From assembly GCA_050014095.1 (NCBI GenBank), contig JBEKDZ010000004.1, positions 8,359-72,358 on the forward strand: a DNA stretch of 64,000 nt, in the 5' to 3' direction. Positions 8,112 to 27,379 of this stretch are shown in pieces. This DNA is from Dehalococcoidales bacterium. GTDB lineage: Bacteria > Chloroflexota > Dehalococcoidia > Dehalococcoidales > RBG-16-60-22. Every line of letters begins with the position of its first letter. Positions within the stretch are counted from its first letter, which is position 1. Position numbers and translations under genes: made by a program. The notes beneath the pieces were generated by a model. The model was not told the DNA's origin. It did not search any database and saw only the letters and a list, made by a program, of their open reading frames with translations.

Positions 8112-9251
8112 TTACTTGTCAGAATCATTGAGGCGCAGGCCTTCAATCAAGGCTTTTACCGCCATGGGACAAAACTGACTGCCGGAGCAATCGTTGAGTT
8201 CTTTAACGGCAATATCAATGGGCAAAGCCGAGCGATAAGCGCGGTCGGTGGTCATGGTGTCAAAGGCATCAGCCACGGCAATGAGGCGGGCGCCCAAGGG
8301 AATAGCGTCACCCTTTAATCCATTGGGATAGCCCGTGCCATCGTGTTTTTCATGATGGCTAAGCACAAACTCAGCCGCTTTTTCTAGAAAAGGAATTTCT
8401 CTTAAGAGCTCCGCCCCGGTCACCGGATGGGCACGTATTATCTCCCATTCTTCCGGCGTCAAGGGACCGGTCTTACTCAAGATACTAGAATCAATAGTCA
8501 TTTTACCGACGTCATGGAGAATACCCGCGTATTCCAGAGTCTGCACCTCGTCAGAAGAGAATGAGAGCGCTAGGCCAGCCTTGGATGAATATTCCATCAC
8601 CCTTTGAGAATGACCTCGTGTAGAGGGGTCTTTGGCATCGATGGCTGCTGCCAGCGCCATAATGGTGCTTTTATAGGCTTCCATTAGCGTCTGTTGCAGC
8701 CGGGTATTTTCAATCGCCATAGCGGTGGTGTTTGCTACGGCAACGACGGCTTCCATATCCTGCTCGTCGAAAACCTTTCCCTCGCATTTGTTGAGCACCT
8801 CTATCACACCGAGAGTCTTGCGGTCGATGCTAAGCGGGGCGCAAACCAGCGATTTAGTATAAAAACCGGTAGTATCGTCAATCACTTTATGAAAATTAGT
8901 GCTCCGGGTGACATCATTAACAATCAGTGGTTTGCCGGTACGCACTACCTGACCGGCAATACCGTATTGAGTGCTTAATTTCGCCTGTCGCAACGTCTTG
9001 CCAACAGGACCGGTGACAGCTTCGAAATACAGCTCCTGGTCATTATCTCTGAATAATAGCACCGAAGCCGCTTCAGCATTGAGCGTACGCTGGGTCATCA
9101 TGATTACCTGTTCCAGCAAATCCTGCATGCGTGTGCTATTCTCCGCTTTTTTATTCGTCTCACGAAGCATCTCTAAGCGCGCAATATTATCCCGCTCTAT
9201 ATGGCCGGAAGGTATCTTCCCGAATTTAGTTCGCTCTAGACTATTAACCAT
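8112..9251 (-). CDS. GAF domain + HD-GYP domain phosphodiesterase
   Basis: N-terminal GAF-like region (ASVLLFRDNDQELYFEAVTG...LVCAPL...GVIEVLNK). C-terminal HD-GYP signatures are ILHDVGK and HHEKHDGTGYPNGL. Confidence 0.85.
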   Translation of the reverse strand: MVNSLERTKFGKIPSGHIERDNIARLEMLRETNKKAENSTRMQDLLEQVIMMTQRTLNAEAASVLLFRDNDQELYFEAVTGPVGKTLRQAKLSTQYGIAGQVVRTGKPLIVNDVTRSTNFHKVIDDTTGFYTKSLVCAPLSIDRKTLGVIEVLNKCEGKVFDEQDMEAVVAVANTTAMAIENTRLQQTLMEAYKSTIMALAAAIDAKDPSTRGHSQRVMEYSSKAGLALSFSSDEVQTLEYAGILHDVGKMTIDSSILSKTGPLTPEEWEIIRAHPVTGAELLREIPFLEKAAEFVLSHHEKHDGTGYPNGLKGDAIPLGARLIAVADAFDTMTTDRAYRSALPIDIAVKELNDCSGSQFCPMAVKALIEGLRLNDSDK

Positions 9252-9300
9252 TGCCGTTTCCTTATCTGCCTGTTTATGCTAGCAATCGACCCCTTGCTAC

Positions 9301-10113
9301 TTATGAAGCTACGCTTTCTAGACTGCGAAATTGCATCTTGTTTCTTTCCGGTAAATTATCGAACTCTTCTTTAACAACCCATACCAGCTCATTATCGCCG
9401 ACGCCGCGGATGGCGACATATTTAGGCACAAAGAGCTCTGCGTATTCCGGAGGCATATATTCCTGCACCGCAAACCCACGGTGGGGGAAACAAAAAGTTA
9501 GAGGATTCAGGTGAGATAGCCTCGAGGCAGTATTGATACAGTGCCCGATATAGTCGTGACCATTGCCAATACTGAAAACCTTGCCTCTGGCTACGCCGCA
9601 GCGGAGCACGCTCGGCGGTTTATTAACGACCCTGTTTATCTGGGGATAAAAATCCTGCCGGTAGGCATAACAAATGTTATAAAGGGTGGCGGCTAATCGG
9701 CAAACCTGGTCTTCTTTCATTCTGCGGGCGTTCCAAACAACCACTATGCCATCCCCCGTGAATTTTACGAGTATCGGGAGGTCCGCCCAAAAATAGGTGC
9801 GGCCATCATCCTCATCGGTAAGACCGTAGATGATACTGCCAAAAAACCAATCGAAGAAGTTATTAAGAAACGAGGGGATAGCCAGATAAGCATCCACCTG
9901 GTTGCAGAAGGCGGTAAAACTAGAGAGGTCGAATACAGCCGCGACGGCCTCTATTTCCTCACAAGGCGTATTGACATCGCCCAAGCCGAGTATCGTTGGA
10001 TTGAATTTGTTTAAAATATCATTGGTAAGCAGTTTCAGTCCCCCGGGTTGACCTTGAGCAATACCGGCAGCCGAACCGGTAGACCTCACGCGTCTGATGA
10101 TTCTTCTCTTCAT
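9301..10113 (-). CDS. Stand-alone class III nucleotidyl (adenylyl/guanylyl-type) cyclase homology domain protein
   Basis: Cyclase catalytic motifs are in order: AAVFDLSSFTAF (metal Asp), KFTGDGIVVVW (GD), LRCGVARGKVFSIGNGHDYIGHCINTASRLSHL (R.G..G....Y.G..IN.ASRL). No sensor domain. Lies 49 nt upstream of the GAF-HD-GYP gene. Confidence 0.65.
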   Translation of the reverse strand: MKRRIIRRVRSTGSAAGIAQGQPGGLKLLTNDILNKFNPTILGLGDVNTPCEEIEAVAAVFDLSSFTAFCNQVDAYLAIPSFLNNFFDWFFGSIIYGLTDEDDGRTYFWADLPILVKFTGDGIVVVWNARRMKEDQVCRLAATLYNICYAYRQDFYPQINRVVNKPPSVLRCGVARGKVFSIGNGHDYIGHCINTASRLSHLNPLTFCFPHRGFAVQEYMPPEYAELFVPKYVAIRGVGDNELVWVVKEEFDNLPERNKMQFRSLESVAS

Positions 10114-10351
10114 GGGAGTCCTTTTTCAATAGATTATTCAACCATATATTATTATCGAAAAAGTAAACAAGCCATAAATATTTTTATCAGTTCTCTAAAC
10201 TTTTTGTGAATATCAGATTTTTCAATTAAAGTACACGCGTAAAAAACGTAAACCAAGGGGGCAAAAAGGGGAGGAATATTCCCGTTGCTTATGATAAGGT
10301 GTATAATGTTACCGCAAACATTGCCGACTCAAAAGCGGCAGGAAAGACGCA

Positions 10352-11020
10352 ATGATACAGTTGCTAATAATAACCGAAGAAGCAAAAACAGCCAAGCTAA
10401 TCCAGGCAAGCCTCGCCCGGCACACTTTTACATGCTCTACCACTAATTACAAAAGCGCGCTTGAGACAGCTGCCAAAGAGTCGCCCAACCTGGCGATTTT
10501 AGAAATACCCGATATTGCTAATGAAGCGGTATGGGGGCTTATCAGCAACCTGAAAAAGGGGAGGAATCTGCCAGTAATAGCCTTGATATCGGTAGAAAAG
10601 GCTGCTAGCCTGAACGATCGCCAGGAAATCGATGACTTCATCATCCGCCCGTATAACGAAGCCGAGCTATTACTAAGGATAAATCTCCTGCTGAATAAAA
10701 CACAGGGCGCCGATAGCAGTGAGCAAATTAAGTGCAACGGTTTGATCATCGACCTGATCACCTGCGAGGTTACTGTGGATGGCAGGAAAGCCGACCTTAC
10801 CTTCAAAGAGTACGAGCTGCTTAAACTGATGGCGCGCAACCGGGGTCGTGTTTTCACGCGCGAGGCGCTGCTGGATAAAATCTGGGGCTACGACTATTAC
10901 GGCGGCGACCGTACCGTGGACGTACACATGCGGCGCCTGCGCAGCAAAATCGAGGATGCCAGCCACACCTATATCGAGACTGTGCGTAATATTGGCTACC
11001 GATTCGTGAAAAACCCATAG
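10352..11020 (+). CDS. OmpR/PhoB-family winged-helix regulator with a degenerate (Asp-less) receiver domain
   Basis: The C-terminus (TFKEYELLKLMARNRGRVFTREALLDKIWGYDYYGGDRTVDVHMRRLRSKI...IETVRNIGYRF) is a canonical OmpR DNA-binding domain. In the receiver, the acidic pair is EE (IITEEAK), the phospho-acceptor position is Glu (LAILEIPD) and the conserved Lys is Arg (FIIRPY). Confidence 0.8.
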   Translation: MIQLLIITEEAKTAKLIQASLARHTFTCSTTNYKSALETAAKESPNLAILEIPDIANEAVWGLISNLKKGRNLPVIALISVEKAASLNDRQEIDDFIIRPYNEAELLLRINLLLNKTQGADSSEQIKCNGLIIDLITCEVTVDGRKADLTFKEYELLKLMARNRGRVFTREALLDKIWGYDYYGGDRTVDVHMRRLRSKIEDASHTYIETVRNIGYRFVKNP

Positions 11021-11054
11021 CTTAAACCAGTTTTTAATATAAATTTAACTCTCA

Positions 11055-11072
11055 TGTAATCCGTTCGTAACA
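11055..11072. promoter_or_regulatory. Inverted repeat TGTAA-N8-TAACA upstream of glnA (TnrA/GlnR-box-like, spacing off by one)
   Basis: TGTAATCCGTTCGTAACA lies 65-82 nt upstream of the glnA ATG. The Bacillus TnrA/GlnR consensus is TGTNA-N7-TNACA. Confidence 0.3.
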
Positions 11073-11136
11073 TTTTGAATTTAAAATGAAAATATATAAA
11101 GGGAAAAGTGCTTATATAAAATATTAGGAGGGAACA

Positions 11137-12480
11137 ATGACGAAAAGGAGTAAAGCGGAAGCCAAGGAATACATCCTCAAGATGGCTAAGGAGCACGACG
11201 TTAAGTTTATCTGGTGCTGGTTTACGGATATACTCGGTATTCTGAAGAGCTTCGCCATTACGGTTGAAGAGTTGGAGGGGGCGCTGGAAGAGGGTATGGG
11301 TTTTGATGGCTCTTCTATTGAAGGATTTGCCCGTATCGATGAGAGCGACATGGTCGCCATGCCCGACCCCGATACCTGGCAGTTGTTGCCATGGAATCCG
11401 CCGGAGCACCGCGCGACTGCCCGCATGTTTTGTGATATCCTGATGCCGGGAGGTCAGCCGTTTGAAGGCGACCCACGGTTTGTCCTGAAGAGGAACCTGA
11501 AAAAGGCAGCCGACCTGGGCTATACTTATTACGTGGGGCCGGAACTGGAATACTTCTATTTTAAAGACGGCAACGGCACCGAATTTCTCGACCAGGGCGG
11601 CTACTTCGACCTGACCACGCGCGACGCCGCCATCGAGCTGCGGCGGGATACCGTTATCCAGCTGGAAAAAATGGGTATCGGCGTGGAATATGCCCACCAT
11701 GAGGTCGCTCCAAGTCAGCATGAAATCGATATGCGCTATACGGATGCCCTGACTATGGCGGATAGTGTCATGACTTACCGCCTGGTGGTGAAAGAGGTAG
11801 CGCTGAAAAACGGCGTTTACGCCACCTTCATGCCCAAACCGGTCTTCGGCATCAACGGCAGCGGCATGCATGTGCACCAGTCGCTGTTCAAAGGCGACCA
11901 CAACGCATTTTTCGATACTAAAGACTCCTATCACCTCTCCAAGGAAGCCAAGAGCTATATCGCCGGCCTGCTCAAGTATGCCCCGGAGATTACCGCCGTG
12001 TGCAGCCAGTGGGTCAACTCCTACAAGCGGCTGGTGCCGGGCTACGAAGCTCCGGTCTACCTCTCCTGGGCAAGGCGGAACCGCTCGGACCTCATCCGCG
12101 TACCGGAATACCGCCCGGGCCGGGAAAAAGCCACCCGCATCGAATTCAGGTCGCCGGACCCCGCCTGCAATCCCTACCTCTGCTTCAGCGTCATGTTAGC
12201 CGCCGGACTCGATGGCATCAAGAATAACCTGACGCCACCCGCGCCCATCGAGGAAAACGTCTACGAGATGAGCGCGGAAGAAAGACAGAAACACGGTATC
12301 AGCACGTTACCGGGCAGCCTGGCAGAGGCCATTCAACTGGCGGAAGGCAGCAAGCTGGTAAAGGAAACCCTCGGCGAGCATGTTTTCAACTCCTTCATCG
12401 AAAACAAGAAAAAAGAGTGGGATGAGTACCGTACCCAGGTGTCAGAGTACGAATTGAAGAAATACCTGCCGATAATGTAA
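11137..12480 (+). CDS. glnA: Glutamine synthetase type I
   Basis: FDGSSIEGF, GPELEYF, the HHEVAPSQHEIDMRY region and NGSGMHVHQSLF are all GSI hallmarks. A GGAGG RBS precedes the ATG. Confidence 0.95.
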   Translation: MTKRSKAEAKEYILKMAKEHDVKFIWCWFTDILGILKSFAITVEELEGALEEGMGFDGSSIEGFARIDESDMVAMPDPDTWQLLPWNPPEHRATARMFCDILMPGGQPFEGDPRFVLKRNLKKAADLGYTYYVGPELEYFYFKDGNGTEFLDQGGYFDLTTRDAAIELRRDTVIQLEKMGIGVEYAHHEVAPSQHEIDMRYTDALTMADSVMTYRLVVKEVALKNGVYATFMPKPVFGINGSGMHVHQSLFKGDHNAFFDTKDSYHLSKEAKSYIAGLLKYAPEITAVCSQWVNSYKRLVPGYEAPVYLSWARRNRSDLIRVPEYRPGREKATRIEFRSPDPACNPYLCFSVMLAAGLDGIKNNLTPPAPIEENVYEMSAEERQKHGISTLPGSLAEAIQLAEGSKLVKETLGEHVFNSFIENKKKEWDEYRTQVSEYELKKYLPIM

Positions 12481-25316: not shown

Positions 25317-27002
25317 CTAATACCTTAGGTAATTGGGCACGATGTTCTTGTATTTCTTAACCAGCTGCGCCCAATTCTTCGGCAGCTCAACTTTTATCGT
25401 CACCGGATTAGGCCCGCCCTGCATAAGGCCCATCCACGACCCGAACCCACCGAAAACGAATATTTGAACGGGGTCGGGGTCGCGCGGGCTCGGCACCAGA
25501 ATAGCATTTTTATTAGCCGCACCGGTAATAACGACATTGCCGCGGTCGAAGGGTTTACTGTCGTCTAAGCCCAACCTCTTATAGTATCCGTCAGGCACGA
25601 CGGCGTTCTTCACGATAAAGTCTTTGACGGCTTTTTTTCTCCAGCCATCCTTCGCCAGTGAACCGGCGTTGGTAGGCGTTAGCAGTACCGCGAACATGCC
25701 CATACGAGCGGGCACGATGCTGCCCACCACCGTCGCCAGTATGCCTTTAGCGTCGGTGCCGAAGGGCATCATCTGCTGGAAGGACTGCGGAAACATAAGG
25801 GAAATGGCACTATCTTCTTTTTTAAAGCCTCGCTCGACATGCAGCGGCTCCCAGGGACTGTTCTCTTCGTTTTCCGCCGCCACAAAGGAGTATTTGCCGG
25901 GGTTGCCCAGCACGCCCATATCCTCGATTTGCTTGCGGATGCCACGGATGTTTTTAGTTATCAATCCCATCGCCCGCCCGATTGATGCGTTAGCGATATC
26001 CCCCGGACTGGTGGCGCCATAGGTCGAGCGCACGTTTATATCCTTAGCGATAGGCCCATTAATGAGCCAGAAAGGAGCGAACGAGCCGGTGCTCGCCGCC
26101 ATCATGCCGCAGACCGGGTTAGACGCCAGGGCATGCACGCCGGCGATGAGTAGCGGCATATAGGTCGGCAGGCAGCCTGCCATAACGGCGTTAATGGCGA
26201 TTTTTTCAATGGTGGCTTTGCCCAGGCGCGGCTCCAGCTTCTCCACCAGATGGTCAGCGGGGAAGTCGGTGCCGGTCATCATCTCCGCCACTGCTTCTTC
26301 GGTGGGAGGGATAATGGGGAGTCCGTCCGTCCAGCCGCGCTGGTAGAAGAACTGGTTGACCTCCGCCAGCGTGCCCTTGAAAATAAGGCGCGTGGGGTTC
26401 TCTGCTTCCCGGCGCTTGGGCGCTTTCTCCTCGTCGGTCAACGGCTTTGTCAATACGGCGACGACGTTATTGAATACCGCTTTGACAGCGGCTACGATAT
26501 CCTCCACGACGGTCGACTCGGAGACGATGGTCTCCGGCACAATCCTTATCACCGGCATGCCTTTGCTGGATGCCGCGGACATGGCGTCGTTATGAAAATG
26601 CTCGAAGACGTAGGTGGCAGTCGGCTTGCCCTTGCCCTCGATATAAATTGCGTCGTACACAAGGTACTTGGTGCATGCCCCTCAGTCGCCGACGGCGGCG
26701 ATAACCGCATCCACCCCCTTTAGCCAGTCGTTAAACTCCCCTTCCCTGTCCTTTTCCAGGGAGGAAACGGAGAACGACCGGGCGAAAAACTTGGTGATAG
26801 ACACGGAAGGGAATTTTTCATTAATCAGCTTCTCCGTGACGTCGAGGATAAGCGTAGCGGCGCGTTTGTTGTTGCATAGCAGACCTATTTTCTTGCCGTC
26901 CAGCTTATCCAGTCGCGGCGAAAGACCCTTTAACTGAACGGGGTCGGCTTCCGCCCAGGGACTTAGTACTTCATAAGTAGGAGTTGCTTTTTCTGCACTC
27001 AT
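25317..27002 (-). CDS. Candidate selenoprotein: ORFs 26682..27002 and 25317..26660 fused through an in-frame UGA (U-G-A-C motif; UGSC-family-like)
   Basis: Same frame. The junction reads ...GVDAVIAAVGD-UGA-GACTKYLVYDAIYIEGK. There is only a 21-nt gap, with no RBS and no in-frame ATG for the downstream part (the track start is a GTG). A good RBS (AAGGAAG) precedes only ATG 27002. The genome demonstrably decodes Sec (fdhA). Confidence 0.6.
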
Positions 27003-27064
27003 ATTGATACTTCCTTTTCTCCAGTAATAAGTATAAAAAATATCCCATCTTTAAGGACAGAATG

Positions 27065-27379
27065 TCAGGACTTTGTTTGGCCGATAAACGACTGCATTAA
27101 AATTTTCCCATCTCGGATGTGAAATGTGTCACCACCGAATAGGACCGCCGGAACCGCCGACCAGAGGACGTAGGCATATTCTCCATAAATTTCTTGCCTG
27201 ATGGTCTTCATGTTAGCTATCACTTCGGGTGTATATATAGTTATTATTCTTGAAAAACTCGCTCGTATACTATTGAGTCCTTTCTGAGACAAGCGCTTGT
27301 ACATGGTTTTGTAATACCGCTTCAATTGCTCCTGTAGCCATATAGACTCCTTTATATACTTATATTGATTCGCCCACAA
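27065..27379 (-). CDS. Hypothetical protein, possibly NTF2/SnoaL-like fold
   Basis: C-terminal GGDTFHIRDGKILMQSF resembles the SnoaL-like family ending. AT-richer than its neighbours (by eye). Confidence 0.35.
   Translation of the reverse strand: MWANQYKYIKESIWLQEQLKRYYKTMYKRLSQKGLNSIRASFSRIITIYTPEVIANMKTIRQEIYGEYAYVLWSAVPAVLFGGDTFHIRDGKILMQSFIGQTKS

Follow-up and report, generated by a model that had tools for sequence, protein, structure and literature searches.

The locus described here raises the question of which nucleotide signal, if any, connects two neighbouring genes of a Dehalococcoidales bacterium. The genes, designated A and B, are located on the minus strand within a 64,000-nucleotide (nt) stretch of contig JBEKDZ010000004.1 of the assembly GCA_050014095.1 (hereafter, the window). 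An earlier note, made from the DNA letters of the window alone, had described them as a sensor-less class III nucleotidyl cyclase and a GAF-HD-GYP protein, which together would form a generator-plus-receiver/effector module with a logic resembling that of Pycsar and CBASS defence systems. The coordinates of the open reading frames (Table 1) agree with the layout given there, i.e., two co-oriented genes, of which A, encoding 270 amino acids (aa), is situated 49 nt upstream of B. The generator-plus-receiver module, as a conserved operon, is also the best reading of our data; its framing as Pycsar- or CBASS-like did not stand. We consider it rather probable, if far from assured, that A makes cyclic AMP (cAMP), that the GAF domain of B senses this cAMP and that the HD-GYP domain of B degrades cyclic di-GMP (c-di-GMP), all within ordinary cell signalling.

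The first point to be settled was whether A is a cyclase at all. It had no match at E ≤ 1 in either Pfam or NCBIfam, the curated model PF00211 included, and its best match in PADLOC, to PycC (E 0.03, 11.7 bits), was below significance. The earlier note had tied the cyclase assignment to PF00211-type models, and by the letter of its own terms the assignment would be lost; structure and family profile overrule this outcome. The AlphaFold (AF2) model of A, based on 44 homologues (pLDDT 84.9, pTM 0.79), was searched with Foldseek; 147 PDB chains matched it with E ≤ 0.001, and every one of the 50 best was a class III adenylyl or guanylyl cyclase (AC/GC) with probability 1.0. CyaC (1wc1) was matched with E 1e-8, probability 1.0 and TM 0.66, and the list of structural matches further comprised OaPAC, Cya2, soluble and receptor guanylyl cyclases, Rv1625c, CyaB and mammalian AC. 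Two family alignments were used for profile searches, A1 made of close members of the A family and A2 made of 64 distant representatives. Among PDB sequences, neither A alone nor the A1 profile found any cyclase, and only the broader A2 profile succeeded, matching CyaC at 8e-7 and CyaB at 1e-3.

In the alignment of A2 to CyaC, the motif KFxGDG falls on KFVGDA, RCGxARG on RCGIHQG and CINxAxRLq on SVNIAARLQ. Hereby K117 and D121 of A map to K1057 and D1061 of CyaC, and N194 and R198 to N1146 and R1150 (chain numbering). The set of metal-binding aspartates and transition-state Asn/Arg is present in A as D62 (FDLxxFT), D121 (KFxGDG) and N194/R198 (CINxASRL), D62 being assigned by its motif and by its position at the end of strand beta-1 of the model. 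Residues D62, K117, D121, R171, D187, N194, R198 and R236 are either invariant or at least 90% conserved in both A1 and A2, and a pseudo-enzyme was rejected, as every catalytic residue is conserved. On the evidence of structure, profile and residue conservation, and despite the failure of PF00211, A is a class III-type cyclase by its fold and active-site residues, with a predicted activity; the claim that it possesses all motif blocks is right at these two levels. With the characterised class III ACs (Spirulina CyaC 1wc0/1wc1, Pseudomonas aeruginosa CyaB 3r5g and Mycobacterium tuberculosis Rv1625c) A shares the fold and, with D187 placed by spacing, six canonical catalytic residues. It differs from them in being overlooked by PF00211, in having no sensor or regulatory domain, in its own basic N-terminal extension and, as compared with CyaC, in a deletion of two residues in the base-recognition loop. 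Of the 64 distant relatives, five match PF00211 with E 0.0018 or weaker, and six match PycC with E-values down to 2e-4.

Concerning the substrate, the invariant K117 is aligned with K1057, the adenine-binding Lys of CyaC. D187 stands 7 residues ahead of the catalytic Asn, the spacing at which class IIIa cyclases carry their base-specifying Asp and CyaC carries Thr1139. Guanylyl cyclases have Glu and Cys/Arg at the positions where adenylyl cyclases have Lys and Asp/Thr. The Lys/Asp pair of A would predict ATP as the substrate and cAMP as the product, with moderate strength, since HMMER places a gap of 2 residues against CyaC exactly at the base-specifying position. In the inspection of substrate-specifying residues that the earlier note had proposed, K117 was placed by alignment and D187 by spacing, beside the gap.

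The core of A is preceded by an extension of about 50 residues, in which no known domain was recognised; no transmembrane (TM) segment was found in A either, and ‘sensor-less’ is a fair description of this protein. The family has a conserved basic start, MKRxIVRRVR (MKRRIIRRVR in the window), with R7 and R8 conserved to at least 90% in A1, and residues 1-22 are disordered in the model (pLDDT <50). The basic N-terminus is not a signal peptide, since no hydrophobic stretch follows it. It raises the question of a regulatory tail, or of a contact with membrane or nucleic acid.

The assignment of B as a protein with an N-terminal GAF and a C-terminal HD-GYP domain was borne out by Pfam, which recognised GAF and HD_5, and by alignment of its residues 23-368 with PmGH of Persephonella marina (4mcw, E 2.4e-55). 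PmGH is a structurally characterised GAF-HD-GYP c-di-GMP phosphodiesterase (PDE) with a trinuclear metal centre (PDB 4mcw). B is similar to it over the full length and has the same HD, HHExxDGxGYP and D motifs, all of them intact (HDVGK at 246, HHEKHDGTGYP at 299 and DAFDT at 328); the HD-GYP half also matched V-cGAP3 and PA4781. When the GAF domain was searched alone against PDB sequences, the matches were 5w10 (1.8e-19), PDE2A GAF-B (1e-18) and PDE10A GAF-B (5e-16), along with PDE5, PDE6 and CyaB2 (3.5e-14), and the next type of GAF, the haem-binding DevS, appeared at just 6e-3. The entry 5w10, closest in sequence to the GAF of B, is the GAF of Lcd1, a diguanylate cyclase of Leptospira, with cAMP bound. 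An E-value gap of more than 10^13-fold separates the matches of cyclic mononucleotide (cNMP) type from other GAF types. The GAF of B resembles only cNMP-binding GAFs and is predicted to belong to this subtype.

The receiver step, from cAMP through GAF to HD-GYP, has a characterised precedent in Tlr0485 of Thermosynechococcus vulcanus, which is described as a cAMP-activated GAF-HD-GYP c-di-GMP phosphodiesterase (Enomoto et al. 2020, J Gen Appl Microbiol 66:147, cited in 10.1101/2021.11.05.467447 and PMC8846402). The earlier note did not know a GAF-HD-GYP effector from described defence systems; with Tlr0485, the effector type itself is not new. By its description, Tlr0485 is like B in its architecture and in the control of c-di-GMP hydrolysis by a cNMP-type GAF. 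The citing reviews mention no operon that links Tlr0485 with a cyclase of its own, whereas B is hard-wired to A and the pair is often accompanied by a gene for a class-II-type PDE. The logic of a cNMP controlling a dinucleotide enzyme is furthermore common to Lcd1 (GAF-GGDEF, Leptospira), to the cAMP-sensing GacB (GAF-Hypr GGDEF, Myxococcus; 10.1101/600031) and to the cAMP-sensing Bd1971 (cNMP-binding-EAL, Bdellovibrio; PMC6717892). Their output domains, synthases or EAL, differ from that of B, and no description places any of them in one operon with a dedicated cyclase. Neither the operon-level hard-wiring to a dedicated cyclase nor the A subfamily was found described in the searchable literature.

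By their arrangement, A and B look like a two-gene operon: they are co-oriented, the gap between them measures 49 nt, no terminator-like hairpin was found in a scan of this spacer, and a gap of 340 nt with a promoter-like site precedes the next gene, nuoE. By inspection, AAGGA is located 7-8 nt 5′ of both ATGs. A scan for promoter and terminator consensus sequences gave counts no better than those of shuffled sequences, and no promoter is claimed from it; the AT-rich region upstream of A is presumed to hold the promoter of the operon.

The conservation of the pair was analysed in 41 genomes related to that of the window, including 24 others of its family. A was present in 19 of the 41, namely in the genome of the window and in 18 of the 24 family members, and in none of the 16 genomes from other families of the order. 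The pair is single-copy, and an orthologue of B (60-82% identity) lies directly downstream of A on the same strand in all 19. Moreover, A1 was used to find 64 named loci, 47 of which have an A of at least 50% identity and are referred to as the paired clade. A full B follows A at 35-228 nt in 44 of these 47; in the others, B is cut by the contig end (L052), is missing at a contig end (L060) or is absent (L048). The figure for informative loci is 44 of 46, and the neighbourhood that the earlier note had proposed to check across genomes is thus well preserved. Identities of A and B to the proteins of the window co-vary (r = 0.76, n = 44), as they should if the two genes were inherited vertically together. 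Close relatives of A form more than 300 clusters at 90% identity, mostly from metagenome-assembled genomes of Dehalococcoidales. With so many homologues of A and with a pairing conserved far beyond chance, both genes are real.

In many relatives, the pair is joined by a third gene, for C, an MBL-fold protein of about 250 aa similar to class-II cAMP phosphodiesterases (PF02112). Of the 42 pair loci that offer room for C, 18 have it right after B, at distances of 38-153 nt; in L069, which has no B, C comes right after A, and in all five loci of the PVC group (L074-L078) it comes right before A. The operon of the window is without C, and an unlinked homologue of 47% identity is encoded elsewhere in the same genome (PDEase_II, 30.7 bits vs a cut-off of 23.7). 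No relative of C was found among PDB sequences. Of all evidence from gene context, this recurrent association of a cyclase with a monocyclic PDE in several phyla speaks best for a cyclic mononucleotide as the product of A. It further suggests C, and not B, as the breaker of this product, so that B would remain as its receiver.

The same context bears on a make-and-break pair, where the HD-GYP domain of B would itself degrade the cyclic mononucleotide made by A. In GAF-containing eukaryotic PDE2/5/10, HD-superfamily catalytic domains act on cyclic mononucleotides; the layout of B, a GAF with an HD-superfamily PDE domain, parallels that of PDE2/5/6/10, and its GAF is most similar to theirs. It should be added that a phosphodiesterase does partner distant homologues of A. 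However, the separate class-II-type PDE following B in 18 of 42 loci would make B redundant in this role, B aligns over its full length with a c-di-GMP PDE, and the characterised HD-GYPs act on c-di-GMP or 3′3′-cGAMP (10.1101/2021.11.05.467447; 10.1101/600031). We regard the make-and-break pair as very improbable.

The inventory of the genome of the window, which is 94% complete, bears on the remaining parts of the proposed circuit. No PF00211 cyclase was found anywhere in this genome and neither EAL nor PilZ domains were detected in it, while one CRP-type cNMP-binding regulator is encoded. A appears to be the sole cyclase, and no other candidate for producing a cyclic mononucleotide was found. 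The single GGDEF protein, of 1015 aa, carries GAF, GGDEF and HD-GYP domains behind about 8-9 TM segments. The signature of its GGDEF domain (GHLAGD, an I-site RTAD of the form RxxD, and GGDEF) is canonical, as predicted for an ordinary c-di-GMP synthase and not for one of the Hypr/cGAMP type. HD-GYP proteins number at least five, including a GAF-HD-GYP paralogue of B with 43% identity. With this inventory, c-di-GMP is a plausible substrate of B.

Another messenger within the same architecture was also considered: A could make cGMP, cCMP or cUMP, with the GAF of B sensing and C removing it. The similarity of the GAF of B to cGMP-binding GAFs of PDE2A/PDE5 is about equal to that to cAMP-binding ones, MBL-fold phosphodiesterases can act on many cNMPs, and the faint matches of A and of six distant relatives to PycC could be read in the same direction. 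Matches to PF00211 and to PycC among the distant members are, however, similarly weak, and both reflect the shared fold only; the top structural matches of A are all AC/GC and none is PycC. Furthermore, K117 and, as placed by spacing, D187 are conserved at the adenine-specifying positions, and we find a messenger other than cAMP improbable. A still more specific variant is a long shot, namely that the A family is a housekeeping cyclase for a non-canonical nucleotide, e.g., cCMP or cUMP, which a GAF would read to control c-di-GMP and an MBL-fold PDE would clear. If true, pyrimidine cyclic nucleotides would serve as signals other than in phage defence, and would do so in a family missed by curated models and spread from Chloroflexota to Spirochaetota, Bacteroidota and PVC phyla.

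The earlier note had pointed to a formal likeness to Pycsar and CBASS in the layout, a class III-fold cyclase beside a nucleotide-sensing protein. As an anti-phage defence system, the pair would have its cyclase set off by infection, and the nucleotide would turn on a toxic effector. The faint similarity to PycC can be counted in favour of such a system, as can the presence of an AbiTii abortive-infection domain in one of the 64 distant representatives of the A family (Pfam 3.9e-15, PADLOC 5.2e-15). The latter hints that some branches of the family, unlike the A of the window, may have been recruited to defence. Pycsar proper combines PycC with a cNMP-activated TM/TIR effector, whereas A has no significant PycC match and its neighbour is a signalling phosphodiesterase, in which the Pfam domain search revealed no TM, TIR, nuclease or other killing domain. 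No PADLOC model was matched significantly. CBASS is founded on a CD-NTase (cGAS/DncV-like, Pol-beta fold), whereas A has the class III fold, and PADLOC gave no CBASS matches. Instead of a defence island and a patchy distribution, the pair is single-copy, vertically inherited in 18 of 24 genomes of one family and placed among stable housekeeping neighbours (glnA, Fe-S/sulfur genes and NuoEF-Fdh), with no mobile or defence genes nearby. The analogy with Pycsar and CBASS fails every membership feature that could be tested; defence was rejected for want of a significant PADLOC match and a killing effector and for the housekeeping context, and we rate it as extremely improbable.

Several observations weigh against the cAMP-to-c-di-GMP reading. 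The lack of recognition of A by PF00211 and NCBIfam and the gap at its base-specifying position belong here, as does the hydrolysis of 3′3′-cGAMP, not c-di-GMP, by some HD-GYPs (10.1101/600031); the GAF ligand of PmGH has not been identified (10.1101/2021.11.05.467447). A occurs without B in L048 and in all clades below about 50% identity, which come from other Dehalococcoidia, Spirochaetota, Bacteroidota, Verrucomicrobiota, Kiritimatiellia and Lentisphaerae. Conversely, two genomes of 83-88% completeness (G004 and G017) keep B with A missing; a search for a cyclase of any kind detected none in them, and their B is directly divergent from the OmpR-type regulator treated below. In a further genome, G011, an internal deletion has removed the R171-R198 half of A and left a truncated pseudogene beside intact B and C. 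A canonical PF00211 cyclase, in a frame of 616 aa, is encoded 13 kb upstream of the truncated A on the same contig, which is compatible with a non-orthologous replacement of A. A second copy of C was also noted in G011. As B is kept in G004 and G017, and beside a broken A in G011, it does not strictly need A; the coupling is strong without being obligatory, which is the usual case among signalling modules.

These cases also speak for co-expression of A and B with no ligand between them, in which A would feed the CRP-type regulator or others and the GAF of B would sense something else, or nothing. One CRP-type protein is available for such a role, homologues of A below 50% identity have other partners, and PmGH offers no known ligand for comparison (10.1101/2021.11.05.467447). 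On the other hand, the two genes are near-universally adjacent across one bacterial family, with order and strand unchanged, the GAF of B falls in the cNMP-binding subtype with the wide E-value gap given above, and Tlr0485 provides the precedent. We find this kind of co-expression unlikely.

The cAMP-to-c-di-GMP circuit could then operate as follows. A would act as a minimal homodimeric class III cyclase with no sensor domain, most probably converting ATP to 3′,5′-cAMP, and its output would presumably be set by transcription or by the conserved basic N-terminal extension. The cyclic nucleotide would bind to the PDE2/Lcd1-like GAF of B and allosterically switch on its HD-GYP domain, activation being the direction that we infer. 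The HD-GYP domain would hydrolyse c-di-GMP, made in this organism by the single membrane-bound GAF-GGDEF-HD-GYP protein. The cNMP signal would be ended by C, whose gene comes third in the operon of many relatives and is located elsewhere in the genome of the window.

As for the surroundings of the operon, an OmpR/GlnR-like regulator devoid of the Asp and/or glnA are located divergently upstream of A-B in about 19 of 45 loci, and a link between nitrogen status and the promoter of the operon may exist, as suggested by this arrangement. A functional link of the regulator, glnA and NuoEF-Fdh with the pair was considered, and they were not taken as parts of the system, since they are found beside the pair in no more than about 19/45 and 8/45 loci. 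An inverted repeat TGTTACCGCAAACA is found 32-45 nt upstream of the start of the regulator, within the region common to it and A-B, and a palindrome TGTAA-N8-TAACA occurs between the regulator and glnA; the spacing of the two differs, and no common operator was established from their comparison.

Distant homologues of A have other neighbours. In a sister clade of Dehalococcoidales, the gene before the A homologue, on its strand, encodes a conserved coiled-coil protein that is tail-anchored and rich in Ala/Glu/Lys, with a conserved KILTKPLPEILDEME start, a C-terminal TM segment and no match in Pfam. Two other homologues of A (L067 and L068) have directly downstream a secretion ATPase of type II/IV with MshEN, a known c-di-GMP-binding domain, and in L068 a KaiC-like ATPase is encoded upstream.

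Table 1. Coordinates of the features discussed. Plain numbers are positions in the window; G, C and L numbers are our handles for genomes, contigs and loci, G000 being the genome of the window.
Feature	Position	Strand	Description
Gene A	9301..10113	-	270 aa, stand-alone divergent class III nucleotidyl cyclase, predicted adenylyl cyclase
Catalytic core of A (~residues 50-250)	9364..9966	-	D62, K117, D121, R171, D187, N194, R198, R236
N-terminal extension of A	9967..10113	-	Basic start, variable linker, conserved FNPxxLxLGD..PC segment
Gene B	8112..9251	-	379 aa, GAF-HD-GYP phosphodiesterase of PmGH type
GAF domain of B (residues 41-181)	8709..9131	-	Pfam; cyclic-nucleotide-binding subtype by similarity
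HD-GYP domain of B (HD_5; residues 201-360)	8172..8651	-	Pfam, E 1.4e-38
A-B intergenic spacer	9252..9300	-	49 nt; Shine-Dalgarno-like AAGGAAA ahead of B start
Divergent intergenic region	10114..10351		AT-rich; common to A-B and Asp-less OmpR-type regulator gene; presumed promoter region of A-B
Promoter-like site	7906-7877		Between B and nuoE
Inverted repeat TGTTACCGCAAACA	10307-10320		Upstream of regulator start
Palindrome TGTAA-N8-TAACA	11055-11072		Between regulator and glnA
Asp-less OmpR/GlnR-like regulator and glnA	10352-12480	+	Divergent from A-B
GGDEF protein	G000:C3:199068-202115 (L082:168-3215)	-	Maker and breaker domains in one chain
Unlinked C homologue	G000:C5:119836-120588		MBL-fold, PDEase_II
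G011 site	C5:20782-21312 and C5:34420-37029 (L081)		Truncated A, intact B and C, PF00211 cyclase
Second copy of C in G011	26377-27141
Tail-anchored coiled-coil protein	L062:5099-5869, L063:5052-5876, L064:5034-5729, L065:4962-5852, L069:2500-3342		Precedes A homologue, same strand
Secretion ATPase type II/IV with MshEN	L067:6893-8422, L068:6804-8441		Directly downstream of A homologue

To a specialist, the finding may appear neat rather than surprising, as the cAMP-GAF-HD-GYP mechanism already has a precedent. Its significance is rather in the partners. The A family, counting 299 representatives at 50% identity that are mostly stand-alone proteins of about 260 aa, is a widespread family of minimal class III cyclases missed by Pfam and NCBIfam, some members of which already bear the labels ‘class 3 adenylate cyclase’ or ‘nucleotidyl cyclase domain-containing protein’. 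With about 300 clusters unseen by these models, censuses of cyclases undercount the family. We know of no report of a cyclase partner for PmGH, and the pairing with A points to a likely source of the ligand, and hence to the likely ligand, for a GAF-HD-GYP enzyme of the PmGH type. For the Dehalococcoidales, in which signalling is, to our knowledge, almost unstudied, the locus would represent a compact two- or three-gene module, to make, to sense and convert, and to break, for crosstalk between second messengers.

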